A stretch of DNA of 64,000 nucleotides from Nemertoderma westbladi. Its lineage: Eukaryota; Animalia; Xenacoelomorpha. The stretch is from positions 21,845 through 85,844 of the forward strand of contig JAUCBJ010006911.1 in NCBI GenBank assembly GCA_032718475.1. The letters run 5' to 3'. Numbering within the stretch: position 1 is the first letter of the stretch; each line of letters opens with the position of its first letter. This document shows positions 8,068 through 56,781 of the stretch, piece by piece. Made by a program: the position numbers and the translations under genes. Under the pieces are notes generated by a model. The model saw nothing but the letters and a program-made list of their open reading frames with translations, did not search any database and had not been told where the DNA came from.

Positions 8068-8244
8068 GTTTCTCTCACATCTTTAATCATGGAGTTGTCA
8101 GACACCAAGGCGTCTTCAGTTTCTGCTAATTCCAACAATTCTGCAACAACATCTGCGGGTTCCAACTTGGCGTATCTTCGAGCTATTCGTATACTTCGAG
8201 CGTTTCGACCACTTCGAGCAATTTCCCGTTGGCAAGGAATGAAG
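8068..8244 (+). CDS. Nav2: Nav2-type channel exon: DIII S3, extended S3-S4 linker, S4 (VSLTSLIMEL...LRAIRILRAFRPLRAISRWQGMK)
   Basis: attttag acceptor, gtaacg donor, 177 nt, phase 0/0; S4 R-x-x repeat; RAISRWQGM is typical of Nav2 DIII. Upstream exons lie before the window. Confidence 0.93.
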
Positions 8245-8576: not shown

Positions 8577-8685
8577 ATTGTTGTTAACGCATTATTTTCC
8601 GCGATCCCACAAATTTGCAATGTACTGCTGGTGTGTTTGATATTCTGGCTGATATTCTCAATAATGGGAGTACAATTTTTTAAAG
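8577..8685 (+). CDS. Nav2: Nav2 exon: DIII S4-S5 linker and S5 ([37 protein letters not shown])
   Basis: ttgtag acceptor, gtaag donor, 109 nt, phase 0/1; [18 protein letters not shown] is a conserved Nav DIII S5 motif. Confidence 0.96.
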
Positions 8686-10977: not shown

Positions 10978-13933
10978 CGGCATGCTGCATTGCAGCTGCA
11001 TTTTTAAGAATGCTGTGCCGGCTTGTCAACAAAATTGCGCCGCCACAACTCCCTATCACCCATGACATTTGCCATCTTCAAGACCAGTGTCCTTTAAGAT
11101 GCGTCTCTAGAAAGTCATGGACTGTCCACCATGCTTATTCACTCCATGAGGCTGCCAAAGTACAAGATTATGCACTGGCTGGTCCTCACGGCGAAAGCAA
11201 TGTCCTGCAAAGCGGAGGCGATTTTGTTCTAGTGTCAAGCTTGCGGGAACCAATGAGACACCTCCAATGTTATATAGTGTCTGGTTGGAGATGTGTGCAT
11301 TGTACTTGACACAATGAACCCGACGTAGCATTCTTGTGAATGTGCCATCCAGAGATTTGGTATCCTCAGCAGTTAGAGCCCAGCATGGACTCCCATAGAG
11401 GAGTACTGGAACTACTGCTGCTCTAAATAATCGGACCTTAAGTTTCCGATTAATTCTCGGTGACTTCCAAATCCTGGAAAGCCTATTCAAGGTTGCCCAT
11501 GCCTTTTCCTTACGTATTCGAAGGTTTTCACCTGACTTCCGGTTCCATGATCCCAGGTAACAGAAGTCGTCCACATGCTCAAGCATACCATCCTGTGAGC
11601 TTATGCTCATCCGATCAGAAACTTGCTGAGAACTTTCAAAGTTAACTGTCAAAATTTTGGTATTTCTGGAGTTAATAAAAAGACCAACACTAGAAGCAGC
11701 ATGTTCTAATGAGCTGAGGAGCCGTTGGGCTCCCTCTAGTGATTCTGAGAGTACTCCTAAGTCATCAGCAAAGTCTAGATCAGTTAGGTACTTGGCAGGA
11801 TTTCTTCGACTTCTGGAGCCAGTAGGTGGAGTTATCATCACCCCATCATCATTATGATGATCGAAGGACATGCGTAGAACAGTCTACAACAATTATGAAC
11901 AAGAATGGTGCAAGTGTGTCTCCCTGGAGGACGCCCCATAAAACTTCAAATGGTTCTGTGTCACCGTCAACAGTAGACACAAATGTTGTCGAACCATCGT
12001 ATACTGATCTGATTGCTGCAATAATTTTATCAGGAATCCCATATAATGACAGAATGCTGAACATACGTGAGCGGGAGACTGTATCAAAGGCCTTGAAGAA
12101 GTCAACAAAGATAACAGCCAGATGCCTGTCTTTCTTTTTTGATAACTCTTCAATTATCCTTCTAAGTGCCAAAATGGGCTCCATGGTCCCACGACCTTTA
12201 CGGAACCCATTCTGATTTCCACGGAGCAGTCTCTCAATGGGATCCCTGATGCGATTTAATAGAATCCTATTGTATAGCTTTGCAGCAATCGAGATCAAAG
12301 AGATTCCCCGAAAAGAACCATAGAGTGTTAGGTTGCCCTTCTTGGGAACAGCTGGGGAACTGGCACCAACTTATTTGTTTTCATTTCTTGTGGGACTCTT
12401 GTTGTTCGGTACATGTCTACTATGATGGGATAGATGAGCTTTAAACACTCAGGTATTTTAAAGACCTCAGGGGGAACACCATCTACTCCACTGGCACGAT
12501 TGGTCTTAATGCTCTTTGCAGCAGCCTTCACTTCTGCAAAGAAGATATCGCCAATGGGAATATCTGGGAGTACAGACTCAGACACTTTTACTTCTATAAA
12601 GTTATCATGCAATAATCCTGTCATTATTGAGGAGCTTTTCAAAGTGGGCCTTCCAACCATTGAGGCGATGGGCTGGTGATTCAGCCTTAACCTTGGTGGT
12701 TGGTTGGCTTTTCCGCCCAGTAAGCAAGTTGATCGATTTCCATGCCTGGGATGATTGCCTGCTGTCGTCGGCATCATTGATGGCATCAACCTGTTGGTTT
12801 ATTAGCTCCTGTAGATTAACAGAGTACTGCCTGTTCAGGGACCTAGATGCAGCCTTAACTGCATTCTTGGCCGCTGTAGTCTGATTGAGTCGGGACTCTT
12901 TCTGTGCCTTATATAGGTCATTTCGGCACTTCTGGATTTTGTTGTCAGTCCAGGGGGCCCTTTTCCTGTTTCGAGGGTATACAGGAACTGTTTCTGCAGC
13001 TGCTAACTTAACTGCTTCTGTGAAGGCAGTATAGCCCACACAGTGATCTGCCGCCTCAGAGGCAAGAACCTCATACCTGTCGCTCAGCTGTAGTGTGAAG
13101 CTGGATCTCACACTTGGCTGTTGCAACAGAGAGGACCAGTCATGCCGCTGCAAGGCAGATTTCGTTGTTCTGCTAGCACGCAGACTAAGTCTTACCTTGG
13201 CCACAATAAGGCGGTGATCACTGGAGTAGGGTCGAAGTGTAAATGCATTACAGTCTTGTATAGAGCTCCTGTACAGCCTACGAAACAGAATATGGTCTAT
13301 CTGGGACTTGTGACCACTGGTTCCACTATGAGTCCATAGCTTTTCAGTTTGCTTCTTGAACTGGGTTCCAGCCGAAAACAATCCATTTCCAGAGATGAAA
13401 TCCTGAAGATGGACGGAATTTCGGTTGAGACTATTGCTATAGACCCATGGCGATGTAGGTGATTGATGCAGACTTGCATTAAAGTCTCCCAGGAATGTTA
13501 AGAATGCATGCTGATCCAATCCATCAGTAGCTGCTTGTAGATTGTGGTAGAAATTTTCCACCTCCTCTACAGGGGCAACACTAGTTGGAGAGTAGCACAC
13601 AATTAGAACCACCTTAGGAAACCTCTTAGCTAGTCTTCCAGAACATGAGAAGTGGCAATGGATGATGCGGTTAGAGATTTGGTCTATTTTGTCCAATGCT
13701 GCATGTGCAGTTGGATTCATCAATAGACCAATACCACCATTGCCACTATCATCTGCTGACGCGAGGGCGAGTCGCCAACCGCCCCCATGTCCTTAATCAG
13801 AACCTCATCAGTCTGTCCAGTCTGCATTCGGTGCTCTTGAACACCCACTGCGCTAAGAGAAAGCTTATCTGCGAAGGCAGTCAGCTCACCTTGTCGCATT
13901 GGGGACCCGAGTGTTAGGGTGTTTACTTAGGCT
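10978..13933 (-). mobile_element. RTE-clade LINE, near full length but frameshifted (APE plus RT)
   Basis: YSPT, GDFNA, IDHIL, SDH (APE); QNGFRKGR, VDFFKAFD, GVLQGDTLAPFLF, DLDFADD, FCYLGS (RT), split over several ORFs. Confidence 0.92.
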
Positions 13934-15773: not shown

Positions 15774-15857
15774 GACAATTTTTTCGATGCCTCGATAATA
15801 ATGGAAATATAATGGATGCCGATGTAATACCAAATAAGACTGCATGTATTGCTCGAG
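15774..15857 (+). CDS. Nav2: Nav2 exon: DIII S5-P extracellular turret (GQFFRCLDNNGNIMDADVIPNKTACIAR)
   Basis: ttttag acceptor, gtgagt donor, 84 nt, phase 1/1; F-x-x-C...PNK-x-x-C turret pattern; joins both neighbours in frame. Confidence 0.92.
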
Positions 15858-18800
15858 GTGAGTTAAATACTGAATGTGTAGCAGATGTACTAGAGGTGAG
15901 TGAAATACTGAATGTGTAGCGGATGTAGTAGAGGTGAGTGAAATACTGAATGTGTAGCGGATGTACTAGAGGTGAGTGAAATACTGAATGTGTAGCGGAT
16001 GTACTAGAGGTGAGTGAAATACTGAATGTGTAGCGGATGTACTAGAGGTGAGTGAAATACTGAATGTGTAGCGGATGTACTAGAGGTGAGTGAAATACTG
16101 AATGTGTAGCGGATGTACTAGAGGTGAGTGAAATACTGAATGTGTAGCGGATGTAGTAGAGGTGAGTGAAATACTGAATGTGTAGCGGATGTAGTAGAGG
16201 TAAGTGAAATACTGAATGTGTAGCGGATGTACTAGAGGTGAGTGAAATACTGAATGTGTCGTGGATGTACTAGAGGTGAGTGAAATACTGAATGTGTAGC
16301 GGATGTACTAGAGGTGAGTGAAATACTGAATGTGTAGCGGATGTAGTAGAGGTGAGTGAAATACTGAATGTGTAGCGGATGTAGTAGAGGTGAGTGAAAT
16401 ACTGAATGTGTAGTGGATGTAGTAGAGGTGAGTGAAATACTGAATGTGTAGCGGATGTACTAGAGGTGAGTGAAATACTGAATGTGTAGCGGATGTAGTA
16501 GAGGTGAGTGAAATACTGAATGTGTAGCGGATGTACTAGAGGTGAGTGAAATACTGAATGTGTAGCGGATGTACTAGAGGTGAGTGAAATACTGAATGTG
16601 TAGCGGATGTACTAGAGGTGAGTGAAATACTGAATGTGTAGTGGATGTAGTAGAGGTGGGTGAAATACTGAATGTGTAGCGGATGTAGTAGAGGTGAGTG
16701 AAATACTGAATGTGTAGCGGATGTACTAGAGGTGGGTGAAATACTGAATGTGTAGCGGATGTAGTAGAGGTGGGTGAAATACTGAATGTGTAGCGGATGT
16801 AGTAGAGGTGAGTGAAATACTGAATGTGTAGCGGATGTACTAGAGGTGAGTGAAATACTGAATGTGTAGCGGATGTACTAGAGGTGAGTGAAATACTGAA
16901 TGTGTAGTGGATGTAGTAGAGGTGAGTGAAATACTGAATGTGTAGCGGATGTGCTAGAGTTGAGTGAAATACTGAATGTGTAGTGGATGTAGTAGAGGTG
17001 GGTGAAATACTGAATGTGTAGCGGATGTAGTAGAGGTGAGTGAAATACTGAATGTGTAGCGGATGTACTAGAGGTGGGTGAAATACTGAATGTGTAGCGG
17101 ATGTACTAGAGGTGAGTGAAATACTGAATGTGTAGTGGATGTACTAGAGGTGAGTGAAATACTGAATGTGTAGCGGATGTACTAGAGGTGAGTGAAATAC
17201 TGAATGTGTAGTGGATGTACTAGAGGTGAGTGAAATACTGAATGTGTAGCGGATGTAGTAGAGGTGAGTGAAATACTGAATGTGTAGTGGATGTACTAGA
17301 GGTGAGTGAAATACTGAATGTGTAGCTGATGTACTAGAGGTGAGTGAAATACTGAATGTGTAGCGGATGTAGTAGAGGTGAGTGAAATACTGAATGTGTA
17401 GCGGATGTAGTAGAGGTGAGTGAAATACTGAATGTGTAGCGGATGTAGTAGAGGTGAGTGAAATACTGAATGTGTAGTGGATGTACTAGAGGTGAGTGAA
17501 ATACTGAATGTGTAGCGGATGTACTAGAGGTGAGTGAAATACTGAATGTGTAGCGGATGTACTAGAGGTGAGTGAAATACTGAATGTGTAGCGGATGTAG
17601 TAGAGGTGAGTGAAATACTGAATGTGTAGCGGATGTACTAGAGGTGAGTGAAATACTGAATGTGTAGCGGATGTATTAGAGGTGAGTGAAATACTGAATG
17701 TGTAGCGGATGTACTAGAGGTGAGTGAAATACTGAATGTGTAGCGGATGTATTAGAGGTGAGTGAAATACTGAATGTGTAGCGGATGTACTAGAGGTGAG
17801 TGAAATACTGAATGTGTAGCGGATGTGCTAGAGGTGAGTGAAATACTGAATGTGTAGCGGATGTACTAGAGGTGAGTGAAATACTGAATGTGTAGCGGAT
17901 GTAGTAGAGGTGAGTGAAATACTGAATGTGTAGCGGATGTACTAGAGGTGAGTGAAATACTGAATGTGTAGCGGATGTAGTAGAGGTGAGTGAAATACTG
18001 AATGTGTAGCGGATGTAGTAGAGGTGAGTGAAATACTGAATGTGTAGCGGATGTAGTAGAGGTGAGTGAAATACTGAATGTGTAGCGGATGTAGTAGAGG
18101 TGAGTGAAATACTGAATGTGTAGCGGATGTAGTAGAGGTGAGTGAAATACTGAATGCGTAGCGGAAAAAAAAAGTGAAATACTGAATGTGTAGCGGATGT
18201 ACTAGAGGTGAGTGAAATACTGAATGTGTAGCGGATGTACTAGAGGTGAGTGAAATACTGAATGTGTAGTGGATGTACTAGAGGTGAGTGAAATACTGAA
18301 TGTGTAGCGGATGTGCTAGAGGTGAGTGAAATACTGAATGTGTAGCGGATGTATTAGAGGTGAGTGAAATACTGAATGTGTAGCGGATGTACTAGAGGTG
18401 GGTGAAATACTGAATGTGTAGTGGATGTACTAGAGGTGAGTGAAATACTGAATGTGTAGCGGATGTACTAGAGGTGAGTGAAATACTGAATGTGTAGTGG
18501 ATGTACTAGAGGTGAGTGAAATACTGAATGTGTAGCGGATGTAGTAGAGGTGAGTGAAATACTGAATGTGTAGCGGATGTACTAGAGGTGAGTGAAATAC
18601 TGAATGTGTAGCGGATGTACTAGAGGTGAGTGAAATACTGAATGTGTAGTGGATGTACTAGAGGTGAGTGAAATACTGAATGTGTAGCGGATGTAGTAGA
18701 GGTGAGTGAAATACTGAATGTGTAGTGGATGTACTAGAGGTGAGTGAAATACTGAATGTGTAGCGGATGTACTAGAGGTGAGTGAAATACTGAATGTGTA

Positions 18801-21800
18801 GTGGATGTACTAGAGGTGAGTGAAATACTGAATGTGTAGCGGATGTAGTAGAGGTGAGTGAAATACTGAATGTGTAGTGGATGTACTAGAGGTGAGTGAA
18901 ATACTGAATGTGTAGCTGATGTACTAGAGGTGAGTGAAATATTGAATGTGTAGTGGATGTAGTAGAGGTGAGTGAAATACTGAATGTGTAGCGGATGTAC
19001 TAGAGGTGAGTGAAATACTGAATGTGTAGCGGATGTACTAGAGGTGAGTGAAATACTGAATGTGTAGTGGATGTACTAGAGGTGAGTGAAATACTGAATG
19101 TGTAGTGGATGTACTAGAGGTGAGTGAAATACTGAATGTGTAGCGGATGTACTAGAGGTGAGTGAAATACTGAATGTGTAGTGGATGTACTAGAGGTGAG
19201 TGAAATACTGAATGTGTAGCGGATGTAGTAGAGGTGAGTGAAATACTGAATGTGTAGCGGATGTACTAGAGGTGAGTGAAATACTGAATGTGTAGCGGAT
19301 GTACTAGAGGTGAGTGAAATACTGAATGTGTAGTGGATGTACTAGAGGTGAGTGAAATACTGAATGTGTAGCGGATGTAGTAGAGGTGAGTGAAATACTG
19401 AATGTGTAGTGGATGTACTAGAGGTGAGTGAAATACTGAATGTGTAGCGGATGTACTAGAGGTTAGTGAAATACTGAATGTGTAGTGGATGTACTAGAGG
19501 TGAGTGAAATACTGAATGTGTAGCGGATGTACTAGAGGTGAGTGAAATACTGAATGTGTAGTGGATGTACTAGAGGTGAGTGAAATACTGAATGTGTAGC
19601 GGATGTAGTAGAGGTGAGTGAAATACTGAATGTGTAGCGGATGTACTAGAAGTGAGTGAAATACTGAATGTGTAGCGGATGTACTAGAGGTGAGTGAAAT
19701 ACTGAATGTGTAGTGGATGTACTAGAGGTGAGTGAAATACTGAATGTGTAGCGGATGTAGTAGAGGTGAGTGAAATACTGAATGTGTAGTGGATGTAGTA
19801 GAGGTGAGTGAAATACTGAATGTGTAGCGGATGTAGTAGAGGTGAGTGAAATACTGAATGTGTAGCGGATGTACTAGAGGTGAGTGAAATACTGAATGTG
19901 TAGCGGATGTACTAGAGGTGAGTGAAATACTGAATGTGTAGTGGATGTACTAGAGGTGAGTGAAATACTGAATGTGTAGCGGATGTACTAGAGGTGAGTG
20001 AAATACTGAATGTGTAGTGGATGTACTAGAGGTGAGTGAAATACTGAATGTGTAGCGGATGTAGTAGAGGTGAGTGAAATACTGAATGTGTAGTGGATGT
20101 AGTAGAGGTGAGTGAAATACTGAATGTGTAGCGGATGTAGTAGAGGTGAGTGAAATACTGAATGTGTAGCGGATGTACTAGAGGTGAGTGAAATACTGAA
20201 TGTGTAGCGGATGTACTAGAGGTGAGTGAAATACTGAATGTGTAGTGGATGTACTAGAGGTGAGTGAAATACTGAATGTGTAGCGGATGTAGTAGAGGTG
20301 AGTGAAATACTGAATGTGTAGTGGATGTACTAGAGGTGAGTGAAATACTGAATGTGTAGCGGATGTAGTAGAGGTGAGTGAAATACTGAATGTGTAGCGG
20401 ATGTACTAGAGGTGAGTGAAATACTGAATGTGTAGCGGATGTAGTAGAGGTGAGTGAAATACTGAATGTGTAGTGGATGTACTAGAGGTGAGTGAAATAC
20501 TGAATGTGTAGCTGATGTACTAGAGGTGAGTGAAATATTGAATGTGTAGTGGATGTAGTAGAGGTGAGTGAAATACTGAATGTGTAGCGGATGTACTAGA
20601 GGTGCGTGAAATACTGAATGTGTAGCGGATGTACTAGAGGTGAGTGAAATACTGAATGTGTAGTGGATGTACTAGAGGTGAGTGAAATACTGAATGTGTA
20701 GTGGATGTACTAGAGGTGAGTGAAATACTGAATGTGTAGTGGATGTAGCAGAGGTGAGTGAAATACTGAATGTGTAGTGGATGTACTAGAGGTGAGTGAA
20801 ATACTGAATGTGTAGCGGATGTAGTAGAGGTGAGTGAAATACTGAATGTGTAGCGGATGTACTAGAGGTGAGTGAAATACTGAATGTGTAGCGGATGTAC
20901 TAGAGGTGAGTGAAATACTGAATGTGTAGCGGATGTACTAGAGGTGAGTGAAATACTGAATGTGTAGCGGATGTAGTAGAGGTGAGTGAAATACTGAATG
21001 TGTAGCGGATGTAGTAGAGGTGAGTGAAATACTGAATGTGTAGCGGATGTAGTAGAGGTGAGTGAAATACTGAATGTGTAGTGGATGTACTAGAGGTGAG
21101 TGAAATACTGAATGTGTAGCGGATGTACTAGAGGTGAGTGAAATACTGAATGTGTAGCGGATGTACTAGAGGTGAGTGAAATACTGAATGTGTAGCGGAT
21201 GTACTAGAGGTGAGTGAAATACTGAATGTGTAGCGGATGTAGTAGAGGTGAGTGAAATACTGAATGTGTAGCGGATGTAGTAGAGGTGAGTGAAATACTG
21301 AATGTGTAGCGGATGTAGTAGAGGTGAGTGAAATACTGAATGTGTAGTGGATGTACTAGAGGTGAGTGAAATACTGAATGTGTAGCGGATGTACTAGAGG
21401 TGAGTGAAATACTGAATGTGTAGCGGATGTACTAGAGGTGAGTGAAATACTGAATGTGTAGCGGATGTAGTAGAGGTGAGTGAAATACTGAATGTGTAGC
21501 GGATGTACTAGAGGTGAGTGAAATACTGAATGTGTAGCGGATGTATTAGAGGTGAGTGAAATACTGAATGTGTAGCGGATGTACTAGATGTGAGTGAAAT
21601 ACTGAATGTGTAGCGGATGTATTAGAGGTGAGTGAAATACTGAATGTGTAGCGGATGTACTAGAGGTGAGTGAAATACTGAATGTGTAGCGGATGTGCTA
21701 GAGGTGAGTGAAATACTGAATGTGTAGCGGATGTACTAGAGGTGAGTGAAATACTGAATGTGTAGCGGATGTAGTAGAGGTGAGTGAAATACTGAATGTG

Positions 21801-23741
21801 TAGCGGATATACTAGAGGTGAGTGAAATACTGAATGTGTAGCGGATGTAGTAGAGGTGAGTGAAATACTGAATGTGTAGCGGATGTAGTAGAGGTGAGTG
21901 AAATACTGAATGTGTAGCGGATGTAGTAGAGGTGAGTGAAATACTGAATGTGTAGCGGATGTAGTAGAGGTGAGTGAAATACTGAATGTGTAGCGGATGT
22001 AGTAGAGGTGAGTGAAATACTGAATGCGTAGCGGAAAAAAAAAAGTGAAATACTGAATGTGTAGCGGATGTACTAGAGGTGAGTGAAATACTGAATGTGT
22101 AGCGGATGTACTAGAGGTGAGTGAAATACTGAATGTGTAGCGGATGTACTAGAGGTGAGTGAAATACTGAATGTGTAGCGGATGTGCTAGAGGTGAGTGA
22201 AATACTGAATGTGTAGCGGATGTATTAGAGGTGAGTGAAATACTGAATGTGTAGCGGATGTACTAGAGGTGAGTGAAATACTGAATGTGTAGCGGATGTG
22301 CTAGAGGTGAGTGAAATACTGAATGTGTAGCGGATGTACTAGAGGTGAGTGAAATACTGAATGTGTAGCGGATGTAGTAGAGGTGAGTGAAATACTGAAT
22401 GTGTAGCGGATGTACTAGAGGTGAGTGAAATACTGAATGTGTAGCGGATGTAGTAGAGGTGAGTGAAATACTGAATGTGTAGCGGATGTAGTAGAGGTGA
22501 GTGAAATACTGAATGTGTAGCGGATGTAGTAGAGGTGAGTGAAATACTGAATGTGTAGCGGATGTAGTAGAGGTGAGTGAAATACTGAATGTGTAGCGGA
22601 TGTAGTAGAGGTGAGTGAAATACTGAATGCGTAGCGGAAAAAAAAAAGTGAAATACTGAATGTGTAGCGGATGTACTAGAGGTGAGTGAAATACTGAATG
22701 TGTAGCGGATGTACTAGAGGTGAGTGAAATACTGCATGTGTAGCGGATGTAGTAGAGGTGAGTGAAATACTGAATGTGTAGCGGATGTAGTAGAGGTGAG
22801 TGAAATACTGAATGTGTAGCGGATGTACTAGAGGTGAGTGAAATACTGAATGTGTAGCGGATGTACTAGAGGTGAGTGAAATACTGAATGTGTAGCGGAT
22901 GTACTAGAGGTGAGTGAAATACTGAATGTGTAGCGGATGTAGTAGAGGTGAGTGAAATACTGAATGTGTAGCGGATGTACTAGAGGTGAGTGAAATACTG
23001 AATGTGTAGCGGATGTAGTAGAGGTGAGTGAAATACTGAATGTGTAGCGGATGTACTAGAGGTGAGTGAAATACTGAATGTGTAGCGGATGTACTAGAGG
23101 TGAGTGAAATACTGAATGTGTAGCGGATGTAGTAGAGGTGAGTGAAATACTGAATGTGTAGCGGATGTACTAGAGGTGAGTGAAATACTGAATGTGTAGC
23201 GGATGTACTAGAGGTGAGTGAAATACTGAATGTGTAGCTGATGTAGTAGAGGTGAGTGAATTACTGAATGTGTAGCGGATGTAGTAGAGGTGAGTGAAAT
23301 ACTGAATGTGTAGCGGATGTAGTAGAGGTGAGTGAAATACTGAATGTGTAGCTGATGTAGTAGAGGTGAGTGAAATACTGAATGTGTAGCGGATGTAGTA
23401 GAGGTGAGTGAAATACTGAATGTGTAGCGGATGTACTAGAGGTGAGTGAAATACTGAATGTGTAGCGGATGTACTAGAGGTGAGTGAAATACTGAATGTG
23501 TAGCGGATGTAGTAGAGGTGAGTGTAATACTGAATGTGTAGCGGATGTAGTAGAGGTGAGTGAAATACTGAATGTGTAGCGGATGTACTAGAGGTGAGTG
23601 AAATACTGAATGTGTAGCGGATGTACTAGAGGTGAGTGAAATACTGAATGTGTAGCGGATGTACTAGAGGTGAGTGAAATACTGAATGTGTAGCGGATGT
23701 ACTAGAGGTGAGTGAATTACTGAATGTGTAGCGGATGTACT
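15855..23741 (+). repeat. 38-bp minisatellite, about 207 copies (gaggtgagtgaaatactgaatgtgtagcggatgtacta)
   Basis: Period measured from 15855 to 15893; fills almost the whole intron; the first unit overlaps the real splice donor. Confidence 0.97.
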
Positions 23742-24455: not shown

Positions 24456-24593
24456 GTTGATAAACAACCTATTTACGAAAATCAACTTGGATGGTATGCT
24501 TTCTTTGTGTTCTACATCGTAGCAGGTTCTTTCTTCACTCTCAACCTCTTCATTGGAGTTATCATCGACAACTTTAATCAGCTTAAGAAGAAG
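24456..24593 (+). CDS. Nav2: Nav2 exon: DIII S6 ([10 protein letters not shown]...[23 protein letters not shown])
   Basis: ttgcag acceptor, gttagt donor, 138 nt, phase 0/0; near-invariant [18 protein letters not shown]. Confidence 0.97.
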
Positions 24594-33765: not shown

Positions 33766-36550
33766 TACTACTACTAGGATCGGCATGCTGCATTGCAGCT
33801 GCATTTTTAAGAATACTGTGCCGGCTTGTCGACAAAATTGCGCCGCCACAACGCCCTATCACCCATGATATTTGCTAGATCATCGTCATCCTCAAGATCA
33901 GATTCGTCTCAAGAAAGTCATGGGCTGTCCACCATGCTTATTCACTCCATGAGGCTGCCAAAGTACAAGATTATGCACTGGCTGTTCCTCACGGCGAAAG
34001 CAATGTCCTGCAAAGCGGAGGCGACTTTGGTCTAGTGTCAAGCTTGGGGGAACCAATGAGACACCTCCAATGTTATATAGTGTCTGGATGGAGATGTGTG
34101 CATTGTACTTGACACAATGAACCCGGCGTAGCATTCTTGTGAATGTGCCATCGAGAGATTTGGTGTCCTCAGCAGTTAGAGCCCAGCATGGACTCCCATA
34201 GAGGAGTACTGGAACTACTGCTGCTCTAAATAATCGGACCTTAAGTTTCCGATTAATTCTCGGTGACTTACAAATCCTGGAAAGCCTATTCAAGGCTGCC
34301 CATGCCTTTCCCTTACGTATTCGATGGTCCTCATCTGACTTCCAGATCCATGATCCCAGGTAACAGAACTCATCCACATGCTCAAGCATACCATCATTTG
34401 AGCTTATGCTCATCCGGTAAGAGACTTGCTGATGATTTTCAAAGTTAACTGTCAACATTTTGGACTATCTGGAGTTAATAAAAAGACCAACACTAGAAGC
34501 AGCCTGTTCTAATGAGCTGAGGAGCCGTTGGGCTCCCTCTAGTGATTCTGAGAGTACTCCTAAGCCATCAGCAAAGTCTAGATCAGTTAGGTACTTGGTA
34601 GGATTTCCTCGACTTCTGGAGCCAGTAGGTGGAGTTATCATCACCCCATCATTATTATGATGATCTAAGGACATGCGTAGAACATAGTCAACCACAATAA
34701 TGAACAAGAATGGTGCAAGTGTGTCTCCTTGGAGGACGCCCCATAACACTTCAAATGGTTCTGTGTCACCGTCAACAGTAGACACAAATGTTGTCGAACC
34801 ATCGTATACTGATCTGATTTCATCAGAAATCTCATATAATGAAAGTATGCTGAACATAGTTGAGCGAGAGTCTGAATCAAAGGCCTTAAAGAAGTCAACA
34901 AAATATAACAGCCAGATGCCTGTCTTTCCTTTTTGATATCTCTTCAATTATCCTTCTAAGTGCCAAAATGGCCTCCATGGTCCCACGACCTTTACGGAAC
35001 CCATTCTGATTTCCACGGAGCAGTCTCTCAATGAGATCCCTGATGCGATTTAATAGAATTCTATTGTATAGCTTTGCAGCAATAGAGATCAATGAAATTC
35101 CCCGAAAAGAACCATAGAGTGTTAGGTTGCCCCTCTTGGCAACTGGCACCAACTTATTTGTTTTCATTTATTGTGGGACTCTTGTTGTTCGGTACATGTC
35201 TACTATGATGGGATAGATGAGCTTTAAACACTCAGGTATTTTAAAGACCTCAGGGGGAACACCATCTACTCCACTGGCACGATTGGTCTTAATGCTCTTT
35301 GCAGCAGCCTTCACTTCTGCAATGGAGATATCGCCAATGGGAATATCTGGGAGTACAGACTCAAGACACTTTTACTTCTATAAAGTTATCAGGCAATACC
35401 CTGTCATTATTGAGGAGCTTTTCAAAGTGGGCCTTCCAACCATTGCGGCATTGAGGCGATCGGCTGGTGATTCAGCCTTAACCTTGGTGGTTGGTTGGCT
35501 TTTACGCCCAGTAAGCAAGTTGATCGATTTCCATGCCTGGGATGATTGCCTGCTGTCGTATGTCATCAACCTGTTGGTTTATTAGCTCCTGTAGATTAGC
35601 AGAGTACTGCCTGTTCAGGGACCTAGATGCAGCTTTAACTGCATTCTTCGCCGCTGTAGTCTGTTTGAGTCGGGACTCTTTCTGTGACTGGATCCGAGTT
35701 GGCGAGGGATCCCGACCGGTGTGTGTTTCGAGTTGTATAGGCAATACGCGTTGCCGCGTCCACTTAGTCACTGAAAGGCCGTTAAGGGGCTGAAAGGCCG
35801 ACAGGCCGGTTTAACAAAGCTAGAGTTTGGGGTAAACCCATTTATTGTTGTTGATAATTTCAGATGTATGAGTACCGGTAATATAGCACAATCAGAATTA
35901 CACAATGGCAGCAGTAACGACAACGGTTTAAACCATTTAACTTCTACCCTGAGTAATAGCCAACTGAATCATAATTAACACTGAGTAATAGTTATATGGA
36001 CATTACATGGAAGGTTACACACATTGCTTACTGTATTGACCTACCAATAGATACGCGCTAATTGATGGTGTACCACCCCACTATTGGTTGGTTTACCTGT
36101 CCTAGCCACTCCCTGTCTTTCCTGGCCCTGTGTTGGCTTCCCTCTGAGATGTATTGCTATCTCTCTCTCTAGCTGGAAATATATCGCCTTATTCCATCTG
36201 GTATGCAATATTGCGTTGGGCAATACTGCATATCTAATCGTGATTCGTAAATCACGATTTCCCCATTTTCTTGTTGGGTGGTGCAGCGGATTGGATCCGC
36301 TAACACTTTCTGCGCCTTATAGAGATCATTTCGGCACTTCTGAATTTTGTTGTCAGTCCAGGGGGCCCTTTTCCTGTTTCGAGGGTATACAGGAACTGTT
36401 TCTGCAGCTGCTAATTTAACTGCTTCTGTGAAGGCAGTATAGCCCTCGCAGTGATCTGCCGCCTCAGAGGCAATAACCTCATACCTGTTGCTCAGCTGTA
36501 GTATGAAGCTGGACCTCACACTTGGCTGTTGCAACAGAGAGGACCAGTCA
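33766..36550 (-). mobile_element. RTE-clade LINE, 5' truncated, with (GTA)n tail; interrupted by a solo LTR
   Basis: High similarity to 10978-13140; tail tactactactag; possible TSD aagtata. Confidence 0.92.
35683..36305 (-). mobile_element. Solo LTR (623 bp) nested in the RTE
   Basis: TG...CA with IR tgt..(c/t)ggatcc; 5-bp TSD ctttc at 35678-35682 and 36306-36310; removing it restores the RTE sequence. Confidence 0.88.
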
Positions 36551-36779: not shown

Positions 36780-36896
36780 TATGCAACTGATGCACCTCTT
36801 ATGGTGTTTCTTACTGATACGCAAAAAAAGTTTTACACCACAATGACACAATTTGGCTCGAAGAAAAAGCCCAAGAAGAATATAAATAGACCGCAG
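36780..36896 (+). CDS. Nav2: Nav2 DIII-DIV linker exon, alternative A (YATDAPLMVFLTDTQKKFYTTMTQFGSKKKPKKNINRPQ), gate motif VFL
   Basis: ctgtag acceptor, gttaga donor, 117 nt, phase 0/0, no stop; aligns to the IFMT/MFLT-x-x-Q-K-x-Y-Y...GSKKP...RP linker. Not in the ORF track. Confidence 0.88.
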
Positions 36897-37504
36897 GTTA
36901 GATAAAATTACCGGGGAAATTTATCGAAACTAATTATATAGTTTCTATAGCGGAATCATTCTCATTAAACATTATTGCTGTTTCATTATCATCATCTTAC
37001 TAATTATTAACCGTATTGAATTCTGACTTGGGAGATTTGGCCCACCAATCAAGGTAATTTCCGATAACGTATAATAGGATATATAAAGCATCATGTTTAT
37101 CTTATTTTAATCAAATTGGTTTTATATTTTATTGTGTTGCAGTAATTCGTTACAATTACTGATTGATTATTTAGTAGCTCTATTGAGGCTGTTGGTTGCC
37201 GATGTTTTTCCCTTATTGTAATAAGATAAGCCCAAGAAAACATAAGTAAATAAATAAATCAAAAGCATAAATAAATTAGGTTATAAAAAGGTTATATTAT
37301 GTAAAAGGGACACAAAACTAAAATTTTACTGGTAGTTATGTAGTGAATGCCGTGGACTGCCTGATGCTTTACCTGTATTTGTATTTGTATTTGTACTTTA
37401 TTTTATCATTATTTTACTTTATAGCTTTACATTTATATCTGCACTGATGGTTTCTTCCAGGATGTATAATTATTAGACATATTTTATGTGGGTGAGTGGG
37501 TGAG

Positions 37505-38810
37505 TGAGTTTATTGGAGGTCATATCGGAATGGTTAGAGAGCCCGACTTTCAACCTGCTCGCCACCTCGAACTCTTGTGTGGATGAGTGGGTTTATTGGA
37601 GGTCATATCGGAATGATTAGAGTGCCCGACTTCCAACCTGCTCGCCACCTCGAACTCTTGTGTGGATGAGTGGGTTTATTGGAGGTCATATCGGAATGGT
37701 TAGAGTGCCTAACTTCCAACCTGCTCGCCACCTCGAACTCTTGTGTGGATGAGTGGGTTTATTGGAGGTCATATCGGAATGGTTAGAGTGCCTGACTTCC
37801 AACCTGCTCGCCACCTCGAACTCTTGTGTGGATGAGTGGGTTTATTGGAGGTCATATCGGAATGGTTAGAGTGCCCGACTTCCAACCTGCTCGCCACCTC
37901 GAACTCTTGTGTGGATGAGTGGGTTTATTGGAGGTCATATCGGAATGGTTAGAGTGCCCGACTTCCAACCTGCTCGCCACCTCGAACTCTTGTGTGGATG
38001 AGTGGGTTTATTGGAGGTCATATCGGAATGGTTAGAGTGCCCGACTTCCAACCTGCTCGCCACCTCGAACTCTTGTGTGGATGAGTGGGTTTATTGGAGG
38101 TCATATCGGAATGGTTAGAGTGCCTGACTTCCAACCTGCTCGCCACCTCGAACTCTTGTGTGGATGAGTGGGTTTATTGGAGGTCATATCGGAATGGTTA
38201 GAGAGCCCGACTTTCAACCTGCTCGCCACCTCGAACTCTTGTGTGGATGAGTGGGTTTATTGGAGGTCATATCGGAATGATTAGAGTGCCCGACTTCCAA
38301 CCTGCTCGCCACCTCGAACTCTTGTGTGGATGAGTGGGTTTATTGGAGGTCATATCGGAATGGTTAGAGTGCCTAACTTCCAACCTGCTCGCCACCTCGA
38401 ACTCTTGTGTGGATGAGTGGGTTTATTGGAGGTCATATCGGAATGGTTAGAGTGCCTGACTTCCAACCTGCTCGCCACCTCGAACTCTTGTGTGGATGAG
38501 TGGGTTTATTGGAGGTCATATCGGAATGGTTAGAGTGCCCGACTTCCAACCTGCTCGCCACCTCGAACTCTTGTGTGGATGAGTGGGTTTATTGGAGGTC
38601 ATATCGGAATGGTTAGAGTGCCTAACTTCCAACCTGCTTGCCACCTCGAACTCTTGTGTGGATGAGTGGGTTTATTGGAGGTCATATCGGAATGGTTAGA
38701 GTGCCCGACTTCCAACCTGCTCGCCACCTCGAACTCTTGTGTGGATGAGTGGGTTTATTGGAGGTCATATCGGAATGGTTAGAGTGCCCGACTTCCAACC
38801 TGCTCGTAAC
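37505..38810 (+). repeat. 83-bp minisatellite, about 16 copies, lying between linker exons A and B
   Basis: Period measured from 37511 to 37594; the unit contains a tRNA 5'-half/A-box-like segment (ggtcatatcggaatggttagagtgcccgacttcca). Confidence 0.95.
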
Positions 38811-39006
38811 CTGCTGACAACCCTGCTACCCTTTCCCAACGAATATTGTAATAGTACTTAAAATGGAAAAGATTTTGTTGAATATGTTTGGATGTTTTAA
38901 GATTGCTTCAGATAAAGTTTATCTCCGATATGAATAAAAACAATTACAGAATATAAATAACGTTCGCAAACTATGGACTTTCAATAATAATCGATTAATA
39001 TTTCAG

Positions 39007-39132
39007 TCGGTAGATTTCGTCGACTACATGGGCATTATTCTCACAGATCGGCAGACTAATTACTATATCACACTGAAGCGGGTTGTAGATAGTGTAGCCC
39101 ACAGACCGTCACCTGGGTTGGCTAAACCCAAG
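39007..39132 (+). CDS. Nav2: Nav2 DIII-DIV linker exon, alternative B (SVDFVDYMGIILTDRQTNYYITLKRVVDSVAHRPSPGLAKPK), gate motif IIL
   Basis: tttcag acceptor, gtacta donor (weaker), 126 nt, phase 0/0, no stop; keeps LT-D-x-Q-x-x-YY-x-T-L-K-R and terminal PK; most diverged copy. Confidence 0.75.
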
Positions 39133-39535
39133 GTACTATACAAATACTACCAAACCGAAATTCCCATTTTCCACAATGTTTTTACTTACACTTTAATCCA
39201 CCCCAAACCCTTTATTAAACTGTTTTTTTAACCCGATTTTTTTGCTGTAAACCTGCTAAATAATGCTAAATAATGCTAAATAATGCTTTACTGAAGATTA
39301 AAGATATTAATTAAAATTTATCCGTTTTTGGTAAATCATTTAAAACAAAAATTTAAAATTGTTGTGACTTGGTGTGAATATTAAAACTGGCCGATCTGAT
39401 GCAACGATCCAACCAACGACACTGTGTAATTTAAATCATTCAGTGTGTTATCGTATATTAATTGACATTTATTTGTGTTTTGGGTTTTACTTACTATATT
39501 TTCTGCTACTTTTCCACGCTGCTTTACAATCACAG

Positions 39536-39649
39536 TACGATGGTGACGGAGCTATAGATGTTCTATTGACGGCAAACCAACGTAGTTACTATCAAACTAT
39601 TAGAAGACTTAGTGTTAAAAAACCTAGGAAACATATTCAAAGGCCAAAG
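39536..39649 (+). CDS. Nav2: Nav2 DIII-DIV linker exon, alternative C (YDGDGAIDVLLTANQRSYYQTIRRLSVKKPRKHIQRPK), gate motif VLL
   Basis: cacag acceptor after a pyrimidine-rich tract, gtaatc donor, 114 nt, phase 0/0; LT-x-x-Q-x-x-YY...KKP.K.I.RP. Confidence 0.92.
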
Positions 39650-41296
39650 GTAATCGGAAACTACTAATTATAGAAGCATGTTGTATAGAAGATGTTTGTT
39701 TATTGTGTACTGAATAGTTTACATTATACAGTATAATATACCAACAGTTCTCTGGTAGACATATATCTCATATAAGAGAATCCTTAGGGTCTGTAGGCCT
39801 ACAGGTATAGACTTTATGTTTAATAATAAATTATTTAATGAATGAAGTCGTTAGTTATTATTAATTGTTATTAATGTGAATCCTGAGTCAGAATCGATTC
39901 TGAAAGTAGATGCATTTAAGGATATATTCTACTGCATGCGGAAAATGAGTTACTTGTACTGTAGGTTAGCTTTAGGAATAGTTTTAAATAAGCGTTTATA
40001 TGCATTTAGAAAAGTTATCACAATGTAATATTTCAGATGAACCATTCAATCATGGTGACGTAGACCACTGACATGAACATTCAGTGTATTTTTGTTTCAT
40101 ATTATATCCATATTTCATATCATATATCGTCCATATTATATATTATTGCGCAAATTGATTTGAATGAAGTCAAATGAGTTTGTCATGAAGACAACAAGTT
40201 ACAAAGAAACTAAATGGGGCGTTTGTTATAAAATAGAATGAGTAAATCTCAATTAACTAATTCACATTAACTACAGTTGAACATAATACTAACTACTGTA
40301 CAAACAATACAAAATCTACTGTAGGAATACTGTAGAACTGTATACAATGAATATTGGTGTGATATTGTCAAAATAATAATTAAAAATTCATTACTACTGT
40401 AATACTAGGATTATTTATTTTGCATTATGCGGAATTCGCACTTATATTCTTCCAACGATATTCTGCCTTGAGGTTTCATTGGTTTTTGAGTTTTGTTCTC
40501 AACCTTTTTTGTAATCTTAAAATAAATTAAATAAATTAAAATATTACAAAAATGTTAAATTTCATATTATTTCGTTATTACTGGATACAGGGATTGGTGA
40601 GTTAAGAATTCATAATTCGTTGACGCTTTCATTTTTCTATTTTCTGTTTTTTGCTTCGCTTTCTTGTTTTTGTTATTATTTCCGTTTGGTTTTTATTTCC
40701 GTTTGGTTTTTATTGTACTGTTTATGGTGATTTGTTTCTTAAAAGTTTGTTTCTCCGTAGCTGATTAAGTCACGTACAAATATCAAACTTAATATACAGT
40801 CTTGGTACAAATAGTTGTGGACTGTATTGTAAAATATTATTATCGCCGTAATTCTATTTAATTTCAGTATTATACTGCTTTCACTTTGCATGGTAAACTT
40901 TTTTCAAGCATTAGACACGTTTTAGCAGAGGCATGGCTTTACTGCTTGCAAGAAAAACGAATGTACATAAATTATTTTGAACTTTTTATTTTTCAAGCAA
41001 ACCATGTCTGCATAATGTCCTATATTATTATAAAATTAGCTATTTTATAAGCAAATAATTACAATAAGTGGGGTACATCGAAACCTTGAAACATCTCTTG
41101 AACCTGCCTAACAGCTACAACCGCCTCACTACAATGCCTTCTATAAATTCCTCTATTATTATCTTTAATTTCTAGAATAACTATTAAATTAAATTTAAAA
41201 CAGTATTGACAATACATATGGAAAAATATCTTGCAAAATATAGTCTTTACTTCTGCAGATTTTCTCGACGTGTTTGGGAGTGATAGTTCGACGTCT

Positions 41297-42080
41297 CCGT
41301 CAGCGGCCTAACGTCAGTAATATGTATTTACCTGTCCGTCAGCGGCCTAACGTCAGTAATATGTATTTACCTGTCCGACAGCGGCGTAACGTCAGTAATA
41401 TGTATTTACCTGTCCGACAGCGGCGTAACGTCAGTAATATGTATTTACCTGTCCGTCAGCGGCCTAACGTCAGTAATATGTATTTACCTGTCCGTCAGCG
41501 GCCTAACGTCAGTAATATGTATTTACCTGTCCGTCAGCGGCCTAACGTCAGTAATATGTATTTACCTGTCCGTCAGCGGCCTAACGTCAGTAATATGTAT
41601 TTACCTGTCCGTCAGCGGCCTAACGTCAGTAATATGTATTTACCTGTCCGTCAGCGGCCTAACGTCAGTAATATGTATTTACCTGTCCGTCAGCGGCCTA
41701 ACGTCAGTAATATGTATTTACCTGTCCGTCAGCGGCCTAACGTCAGTAATATGTATTTACCTGTCCGTCAGCGGCCTAACGTCAGTAATATGTATTTACC
41801 TGTCCGTCAGCGGCCTAACGTCAGTAATATGTATTTACCTGTCCGTCAGCGGCCTAACGTCAGTAATATGTATTTACCTGTCCGTCAGCGGCCTAACGTC
41901 AGTAATATGTATTTACCTGTCCGTCAGCGGCCTAACGTCAGTAATATGTATTTACCTGTCCGTCAGCGGCCTAACGTCAGTAATATGTATTTACCTGTCC
42001 GTCAGTGGCCTAACGTCAGTAATATGTATTTACCTGTCCGTCAGCGGCCTAACGTCAGTAATATGTATTTATTTACCTGT
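41297..42080 (+). repeat. 39-bp minisatellite, about 20 copies, directly upstream of the DIV S1 exon
   Basis: Unit ccgtcagcggcctaacgtcagtaatatgtatttacctgt. Confidence 0.95.
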
Positions 42081-42115: not shown

Positions 42116-42247
42116 AATAAATTACTGGCTGCATTTTTTGATATCAGTATGTCATCGAAATTCGAGATAGCAATAATTATTGTGATCCTGATGAATACAG
42201 TTACCTTGGCAGTGAACCACTACGGCATGGATAAATCCTTTGAAGAT
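42116..42247 (+). CDS. Nav2: Nav2 exon: end of linker and DIV S1 (NKLLAAFFDISMSSKFEIAIIIVILMNTVTLAVNHYGMDKSFED)
   Basis: cacag acceptor, gttagt donor, 132 nt, phase 0/0; FD...KFE...I..N...HY pattern. Not in the ORF track. Confidence 0.93.
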
Positions 42248-43789: not shown

Positions 43790-43928
43790 GTACTCAGAAT
43801 ATTTAACATTATATTCACTGTAATATATTGTCTCGAAGCGGCTCTGAAAATAATCGGATTACGTCATCAGTATTTCCTAATCCCTTGGAATGTCTTTGAC
43901 TTCGTAATTGTTATATTCTCTGTAGCCG
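43790..43928 (+). CDS. Nav2: Nav2 exon: DIV S2-S3 (VLRIFNIIFTVIYCLEAALKIIGLRHQYFLIPWNVFDFVIVIFSVA)
   Basis: ttccag acceptor, gttagt donor, 139 nt, phase 0/1; LE...K..GLR..YF..PWNVFDF. Confidence 0.95.
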
Positions 43929-55576: not shown

Positions 55577-56781
55577 ATATTGTATTGGAAAATCTGTCTA
55601 TAAATATTGGATTTAGTCCCTCTGCGTTGCGCGTTTTCCGGTTATTCCGTGTGGGACGGATACTGAGACTCATCAAATCGGCGAAAGGCATCCGCAAACT
55701 CTTATTCGCGTTGCTCATCTCTCTCCCGGCGCTGTTCAACATCTTCCTCCTATTGTTCCTAGTGCTGTTCATCTACGCCGTCATTGGCATGCAGGTGTTC
55801 GGAACGGTGAGAACAGAAGACAGCTCGGGGGGCGGCAACGAGGTACTAAACGACGTCGTCAACTTTAAAACATTTTTCAGTTCGTTAGTGATTTTATTTC
55901 GGTTGATGACAGCCGGGGGTTGGAACGACGTCCTCGAGCCATTAATGTCGACAGAACCCCCAGAATGTGATCCTAACATTCAACACACCGGGTTGCTATC
56001 AGGTGACTGCGGGAACCCTTATATCGCAGTGATCTACCTCGTGACATTCCTACTGGTGACCTACATGATAATCATTAATATGTACATCGCCGTTATTCTC
56101 GAGAACTTTAATTTAGCTCACCAGCAGGAGGAGATAGGCATAACTGAGGACGACATAGACATGTTCTATCTCGTGTGGCAGAGGTACGATCCCAAGGCCA
56201 CAGAGTATATTTATCATCACCAATTAACTAACTTTTGCCATGAATTAGACCCTCCTTTGAGATTACCAAGACCGAACAAAATTAAACTCGTCAATCTCGA
56301 AATCCCAATCACTACAGACGATCGTCTTCACTGCCTCGATGTTCTCAGAGCATTGATAAAACACACTCTCGGTGATATAGAGGACACAGACGAATTCACT
56401 CAACTCATCGAGCGCATGGATGATAAATTTAAAGAAGCCTTCCCAACCAGAAAGACTCTGAAGGTCACTTCATCTACGTTCAACCACCAACGACAAGAAT
56501 TCGCAGCTCAGGTTATTCAGCTGGCGTGGAAAAGGTTTAGGATGCGGAAGGGAATACGACGGGCCAGTGCCGTCTACCGCCACAAACGTAGCCTAGGGGA
56601 TGTGTTGCCAGGACAACAGGAGCGGATAGATGCGAGCATGGCGAAGCTCCGGAGTGGACTGGTGCTGCCCGCCCGGCAACGACGGACTAGCACATCTAGC
56701 GAGGCGAGTTTATCGGATAGCAGTATACGATACACGGGTCAGCCCAGCCCTGCCACTCCCAAAAAGGGGAAACCTAGCTAG
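55577..56781 (+). CDS. Nav2: Nav2 terminal coding exon: DIV S4-S6, pore loop TAGGW, EF-like C-terminal domain, IQ motif, stop
   Basis: tttcag acceptor, phase 1; LRVFRLFRVGRILRLIK, SLPALFNI, NMYIAVILENF, W..YDP.AT, LHCLDVL, AAQVIQLAWKRF; TAG at 56779-56781. Confidence 0.98.

Follow-up and report, generated by a model that had tools for sequence, protein, structure and literature searches.

Alternative exons in four-domain channels

Among the genes of four-domain voltage-gated channels, tandem duplicated alternative exons are enriched, occurring in 11 of the 20 human genes and in all 4 of Drosophila (PMC9741552), and the alternative exons known from voltage-gated sodium (Nav) channels concern the voltage sensors of domain I (DI) or domain III (DIII), or other linkers (PMC13011093, PMC3805903, PMC5295241). 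This work deals with a stretch of 64,000 nucleotides of the genome of Nemertoderma westbladi (Xenacoelomorpha; GenBank assembly GCA_032718475.1, contig JAUCBJ010006911.1, positions 21,845 to 85,844 of the forward strand), here called the window, which contains part of a Nav2 channel gene with three tandem copies (A, B and C) of the exon coding for the linker that joins domain III to domain IV (III-IV linker). This linker, which carries the inactivation latch, is the most constrained cytoplasmic part of Nav channels, both in length and in sequence. With a probability that we put at about 0.6, A, B and C are tandem linker duplicates under selection, one of which would be included in each mRNA, with three predicted types of inactivation as the outcome. 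If this is true, splicing replaces the whole inactivation gate of a Nav-family channel, which would add a new site to the exons repeatedly duplicated in four-domain channels. No described case of a duplicated or swapped III-IV linker exon was found in the literature searched (most subscription papers and supplements lay outside it), as an earlier, sequence-only reading of this DNA had presumed. The tandem-exon strategy is common, and it is its target here (a whole inactivation gate, exchanged three ways, with a Phe/Leu/Ile series at the latch) that appears undescribed.

Mutually exclusive exons of Nav genes include the c/d and k/l pairs of para. In vertebrate Nav1 genes, the pairs 5N/5A (6N/6A) and 18N/18A consist, like A, B and C, of tandem homologous exons, one of which enters each transcript and changes gating, and booklouse para has four tandem copies (exons 27A-D) against the three described here (PMC13011093, PMC3805903). 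The Nav1 exons lie, as the sequence-only reading had stated for the vertebrate pairs, outside the linker, in the S3-S4 region of domain I or III (the voltage sensor), whereas A, B and C lie in the III-IV linker; no replacement of this linker figures in the review table of Nav1.1-1.9 events, and 18N contains a stop, whereas A, B and C are all open (PMC13011093, PMC3805903).

The closest conceptual match is the selectivity-filter swap of invertebrate NALCN (exons 15 and 31), where alternative exons also exchange one defining motif within one gene, although in that case the swap concerns the pore filter, is two-way, has been seen in transcripts and is conserved across phyla, whereas A, B and C come from one genome (PMC3557258). 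The III-IV linker itself is spliced in Cav3 T-type channels, in which exons 25c and 26 alter activation and inactivation; these are optional inserts of 6-19 residues (through an alternative donor or a cassette) in a linker with no IFM latch, whereas each of A, B and C codes for a whole homologous gate (PMC3376122). Honeybee CaV4 and Drosophila DSC1 belong to the same subfamily as the gene in the window, have the motif at the same position and show that the Nav2 linker drives inactivation, although they have a single linker with Phe and inactivate slowly (PMC10983803). The apteronotid scn4ab duplicate, in which rapid change in the inactivation regions led to a persistent current, offers a model for copy B, although it arose by duplication of a whole Nav1 gene and not of an exon (PMC5870949).

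In a Nav2 gene of convolutid acoels, the exon for the end of the DIII pore loop and segment S6 exists in two tandem versions (L015:1113-1253 and 1515-1655), both of which are represented by separate annotated isoforms in Symsagittifera and Convolutriloba (P0127/P0128 and P0136/P0137) and contain the filter Glu. They are likely to be a conserved mutually exclusive pair that affects the pore and the activation gate. This duplicated exon is placed just upstream of the linker and, therefore, the lineage does use such arrays in Nav2.

Three copies of the linker exon

A profile hidden Markov model (HMM) of the Nav linker exon, based on 51 distinct sequences from other animals and without A, B and C, gave exactly three matches in the six frames of the window, which are the three copies (scores in Table 1), the next best score being 3.3 bits. 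When the 17.5 kb interval was shuffled 200 times, the top score was 2.5 bits; no shuffle reached 18 bits and 99 gave any domain at all. The solved Nav1 linkers are matched at 1e-14 by a profile that combines C and A with 11 homologous fragments; Pfam returned no family match for A, B or C. The three copies have in common the motif LT-x-x-Q-x-x-(F/Y)Y, with the Thr, the Gln at +3, the Tyr at +7 and the terminal Pro present in all of them, so that the homology claimed in the sequence-only reading is borne out by profile and motif alike. Each copy is preceded by AG and followed by GT, is in phase 0/0 and lacks stops; coordinates, lengths and translations, as well as the two flanking exons, are exactly as that reading had given them. 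In all three copies the donor follows the last Pro-x, which is its usual place in the family and also that in the acoel genomic locus L015.

Copy C is the most conserved of the three and the nearest to acoel Nav2 linkers; copy A retains the family Phe at the latch and has a donor that resembles the constitutive donors of the gene, and copy B is diverged in its C-terminal half and is 3 residues longer past the Thr. A single-sequence AlphaFold model of B consists of one helix (residues 2-31; predicted local distance difference test 79.5, predicted template modelling score 0.42), which is compatible with a helical linker and otherwise uninformative. According to HMMs slid along the Nav2 alignment, the remaining exons between DIII-S3 and the C-terminus are each single in the window, which means that only one exon was duplicated and not a gene segment. 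DNA identity among A, B and C is 47-50% and their flanks have no remaining homology, which excludes an assembly duplicate, an origin already judged improbable beforehand.

Two other origins or roles were considered for these exons. Derivation of A from a Nav1 gene was rejected, since it scores 46.3 on a Nav2-type profile against 43.6 on a Nav1-type one; the best matches of A include amphioxus and arthropod Nav2. Use of the copies as alternative terminal exons has no support; stops occur 2, 32 and 5 codons past the donors.

The Nav2 gene in the window

The gene model begins at DIII-S3, ends with the stop codon at 56781 and is composed of eight constitutive exons and the three-copy linker array (Table 1). 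All its junctions are AG/GT, and each isoform with one linker copy is free of internal stops. The selectivity filter has the Nav2 pattern, with Glu in DIII (ATFEGW) and Ala in domain IV (DIV; MTAGGW), and the DIII pore motif is the same in 9 of 9 Nav2 homologues checked. The closest database proteins are bilaterian Nav2 channels (approximately 50-56% identity). In a quick IQ-TREE phylogeny (39 rows by 689 columns), the gene is placed within the Nav2 side, which has 35 rows (Shimodaira-Hasegawa-like approximate likelihood ratio test, SH-aLRT, 100), as sister to three convolutid acoel Nav2 proteins (SH-aLRT 99), with a long end branch of 0.64. Judged by its pore residues and its position in the tree, this is a Nav2 channel gene, as had been proposed from the letters, and it is related to those of acoels. 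By this placement, which depends on three reference sequences, the source would likely be a xenacoelomorph outside Convolutidae. No exons for domains I and II were detected in the 64-kb window by the sliding HMMs, these domains being located upstream of it.

Table 1. Exons of the Nav2 gene in the window (positions are those of the window)
Feature	Position	Strand	Remarks
Nav2 exon, DIII S3-S4	8068..8244	+	
Nav2 exon, DIII S4-S5 linker and S5	8577..8685	+	
Nav2 exon, DIII turret	15774..15857	+	
Nav2 exon, DIII pore loop	23965..24092	+	Glu filter residue (ATFEGW)
Upstream constitutive exon, DIII-S6	24456..24593	+	ends NQLKKK, then GT; phase 0; Ion_trans 3.4e-09
Linker exon copy A	36780..36896	+	117 nt, 39 aa; latch V-F-L-T; donor CAG/GTTAGA; 40.5 bits
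Linker exon copy B	39007..39132	+	126 nt, 42 aa; latch I-I-L-T; weak donor AAG/GTACTA; 18.0 bits
Linker exon copy C	39536..39649	+	114 nt, 38 aa; latch V-L-L-T; donor AAG/GTAATC; 55.7 bits
Downstream constitutive exon, linker end and DIV-S1	42116..42247	+	starts NKLL; phase 0
Nav2 exon, DIV S2-S3	43790..43928	+	
Last coding exon, DIV S3 to C-terminus	55577..56781	+	MTAGGW (Ala filter residue); IQ-like motif; Ion_trans 4.2e-39

Age of the duplication and selection on the copies

Silent differences between the copies are saturated (proportion of synonymous differences, pS, 0.75, 0.81 and 0.78, from approximately 25 silent sites per pair), while the corresponding nonsynonymous proportions (pN) are 0.51, 0.40 and 0.53. 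Where two copies have the same residue, it is encoded by a different codon at 6 of 8 (A/B), 13 of 15 (A/C) and 7 of 10 (B/C) positions. In simulations of neutral decay to 45-52% DNA identity, the frame, the absence of stops and both splice dinucleotides remained intact in 0.07-0.5% of the runs, and 15-22% protein identity was left; identity to the best outgroup linker is 54% for A and 43% for B. The saturated pS against the lower pN, together with this simulation, sustains the view, first taken from the sequence, of an old duplication under selection.

Compared with the family consensus, A matches at six positions at which C does not (including the latch Phe) and C matches at five at which A does not; the score of A is 100 against amphioxus Nav2 and 74 against C. 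The six consensus residues kept in A and absent in C indicate that A is not a decayed C, and the reciprocal matches suggest that both copies have been constrained independently. In copy B the basic tail has been remodelled, whereas L-T, Q, Y-Y, T-L-K and the Pro at the end are still present. The end branches of the exon tree (38 columns) measure 3.35 changes per site for B, 1.55 for A and 0.63 for C, and this tree rejects neither a clade of A, B and C (approximately unbiased test, p-AU 0.14) nor one of C with the acoels (p-AU 0.43). The comparison of the paralogues supports the conclusion that A, B and C are old tandem duplicates held intact by selection, with a weaker case for B. The copies are unequal, and B, by far the most diverged, could be losing its function.

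Linker copy number in other animals

Eighty metagenome loci were retrieved with the DIII-S6 exon, 44 of which span the region from DIII-S6 to DIV-S1. One linker copy is present in each of these 44 animal loci, which agrees with the premise that the linker is normally single-copy; they contain 28 distinct linker sequences, the linker forming an exon of its own in 29 loci and having an xLT latch in 13. The ends of the linker exon are identical in genomic fragments from several animals, suggesting that it is an ancient phase 0/0 unit and, thus, easy to duplicate. The isoforms of convolutid acoels contain one linker core per gene, and locus L015 has one copy, its sequence ending approximately 640 nt beyond. 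Lowering the threshold added a single fragment (L006:11227-11310), a partial and diverged copy of a Nav1-type linker located downstream of the DIV-S1 exon, which is probably a decayed duplicate.

Annotated isoforms were surveyed in the clusters of ten annotated Nav2 proteins, for which 92 members were listed. Of these, 88 were examined and 66 had a readable linker, the other 22 rows being fragments or pattern misses (including all 5 Ptychodera rows). Among the best 150 listed matches of a profile search over 1.84 billion representatives there is one Nav protein with two linkers, a scorpion Nav1 model (P0001). It was rejected as a case of alternative exons, since linker and DIV-S1 both repeat identically, as expected of a duplicated block, and three other multi-stretch matches among these 150 were discarded as unrelated repeats. 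A whelk Nav2 gene model (P0107) has no linker exon, likely because of an annotation miss, yet it shows that in-frame loss of the exon is possible. In addition, acoel and bivalve Nav2 proteins (P0003, P0123, P0180 and P0048) have optional inserts of 4-7 residues at the junction between the linker and DIV-S1.

Probable splicing of the linker array

Measured between the same anchors, a linker with one exon has 59 (C), 60 (A) or 63 (B) residues, against 98-102 with two copies, 140 with three and 21 with none. The length of the III-IV linker has been described as near-fixed, at 54 ± 1 or 53-57 residues (PMC3376122, PMC6259924), and the distance from the Thr to the end is 27 residues in all 142 distinct linker cores of other animals. 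Given this fixed length and the near-doubling that two or three copies would cause, the presence of one exon per transcript, and with it mutually exclusive splicing of A, B and C, is likely.

A G at position +5 is present in 6 of the 7 constitutive donors and in that of A, and is absent from those of B and C. Its absence is as expected of skippable exons and fits a regulated competition by splicing factors. The introns between the copies (2110 nt from A to B and 403 nt from B to C) have ordinary GT-AG sites, and no hard-wired exclusivity (steric, U12 or frameshift) was found at the array: the introns are long enough and GT-AG, and co-inclusion is in frame. As neither a device of this kind nor one based on RNA pairing (see below) was found, splicing factors are proposed to make the choice. 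Each mRNA would include one of A, B and C, yielding three channels that differ in inactivation, and the selection would probably depend on splicing factors that differ between cell types and act on weak splice sites. Were this splicing cell-type specific, an early-branching bilaterian would diversify its excitability by swapping gates rather than by duplicating genes.

Latch residue and predicted gating

When the copies are aligned on the invariant Thr, their latches read VFL (A), VLL (C) and IIL (B), so that the central residue is Phe, Leu or Ile. Of 142 distinct linker cores of other animals, 140 have Phe at this place, and the two exceptions (IML and VML) are both from acoels. The acoel linkers without the latch Phe belong to proteins P0003, P0047 and P0057, which have the DIV pore motif TSGGW.

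In rat Nav1.2, replacement of the latch Phe leaves a sustained current of 3% in F1489L, 7% in F1489M and 18% in F1489I, and recovery from inactivation is 50-fold faster in F1489I (PMC2217064). In honeybee CaV4 (a Nav2 orthologue of the DSC1 type), the change of MFL to AAA abolishes inactivation, which agrees with the working latch that the sequence-only reading had attributed to Nav2. The bee channel is slow and Ca2+-permeable, its inactivation taking 100-1000 ms (PMC10983803), and the gate described here would therefore not be one of millisecond fast inactivation. A Tyr equivalent to Y1495 of Nav1.5, whose phosphorylation loosens the latch (PMC8379932), is kept in A, B and C.

By analogy with these mutants, copy A would give the tightest-latching isoform, with the tightest inactivation, and copy C the default isoform, with near-normal inactivation. 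Copy B would give a weakly inactivating, leaky isoform, which would recover faster and pass more sustained current. The further proposal that splicing switches this Phe/Leu/Ile series, with cell types choosing a tight, a default or a leaky persistent-current channel, is a tentative one, to which we give somewhat less than an even chance. Inactivation of Nav2 and the origin of fast inactivation are disputed, a review denying the IFM gate (PMC6259924, section 28) and a 2024 study of the bee orthologue showing the need for it (PMC10983803). Three natural gates on one backbone would constitute a ready-made controlled test of how latch Phe, helix and basic tail act, with no designed mutation.

Weighing the explanations

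Several observations weigh against a selected one-of-three exchange of inactivation gates. No second linker copy was found between DIII-S6 and DIV-S1 in any of the 44 loci of other animals, nor was a within-gene swap of the linker core in any of the 66 annotated Nav2 isoforms with a readable linker. Past the helix, several nearly invariant residues are missing from copy B, which also has the longest branch, and the estimate of saturation depends on the few silent sites given above. All copies are in phase 0 and, hence, co-inclusion or total skipping would be in frame and escape decay. Exclusivity through RNA pairing was rejected, as the inverted repeats are AT-rich and short, the fold around B and C is not unusual (z 0.22) and docking/selector pairing did not exceed that of shuffles in any of four tests (in the best, 1 of 8 shuffles was equally good). 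A search of sequencing runs with the last exon listed no RNA run, which carries no information on expression. No transcript or protein of the species with A, B or C appeared in word-based searches, nor did any other of its proteins, which is weak evidence (the last exon was compared with proteins of 701-2000 aa, the A/B/C profile with those of 75-2000 aa, where none of 88 candidates scored, and the acoel linker with those of 1094-3483 aa). The section of the review cited above holds that Nav2 lacks both the IFM motif and the region around it (PMC6259924). The gating prediction derives from rat Nav1.2, and effects seen in a rat Nav1 channel need not transfer to this one.

Copy B is the point at which a two-way switch would depart from the three-way one, A and C being functional alternative gates and B an exon once used that is now drifting or too rarely included. 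Its score (18.0 bits against 40.5 and 55.7) and its branch length agree with this, as do the weakest donor, the lowest pyrimidine content at the acceptor and the lack of the Lys-rich K-K-P-x-K pattern, and simulation shows that a recently silenced exon (0.1 substitutions per site) is still intact in 21-32% of runs. Yet, although its silent sites are saturated, B retains both Tyr as well as L-T, Q and the T-L-K face of the helix, it ends in K-P-K at precisely the position of the donor, and its change in length is of whole codons, so a two-way switch seems unlikely, although it keeps a real chance. We give a rather small chance to optional cassettes, with C constitutive and A or B sometimes added ahead of it to give a long two-latch linker or a switched-off channel. 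The shared phase 0, introns long enough for co-inclusion and the lack of an exclusivity device would permit it, and short optional inserts do exist in the linker, both in Cav3, where they tune gating (PMC3376122), and in Nav2 isoforms of acoels and bivalves, where 4-7 residues are added at the end of the linker. Co-inclusion would however produce 98-140 residues instead of 59-63, known inserts being of only 4-19 residues, and the latch and helix residues conserved in A and B are meaningful only in the docking position.

The use of C only, with A and B as pseudoexons that have both recently become non-functional, is in keeping with C being the most conserved copy and the one that matches the family linker length exactly. 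We regard it as improbable, because function would have had to be lost twice, independently and recently, in copies long under selection, the best of the three donors belongs to A, which also has the six consensus residues absent in C, and old neutral copies were broken in more than 99% of the simulations. That the triplication is an assembly artefact or a chance likeness of intron sequence is scarcely credible: tandem arrays make up approximately 45% of the window, and an 83-bp array lies between A and B, but copies with 47-50% DNA identity and unrelated flanks are not produced by collapsed or duplicated haplotypes, the adjoining exons are single-copy and none of the 200 shuffles reached the score of B. 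Selected linker duplicates with one copy in each mRNA thus remain our preferred explanation.

Repeats in the window

The repeated part of the window, approximately 45% of its length, consists of 13 long tandem arrays, all of them within introns. A dispersed repeat of 1.9 kb is present at 10978-12906 and 33781-35686, the two copies being 93% identical; shorter copies occur at other places, and these repeats are probably transposon remnants. A 38-bp tandem array (15855-23741, 208 copies) begins at the donor of the exon at 15774-15857 and its unit contains that donor, so that the real donor is followed by 193 perfect AG/GTGAGT sites (decoys) at a spacing of 38 nt. A 39-bp array (41296-42071), placed just upstream of the DIV-S1 acceptor, contains the branch-point-like sequence CTAAC 18 times, the last copy being located 67 nt before the acceptor.

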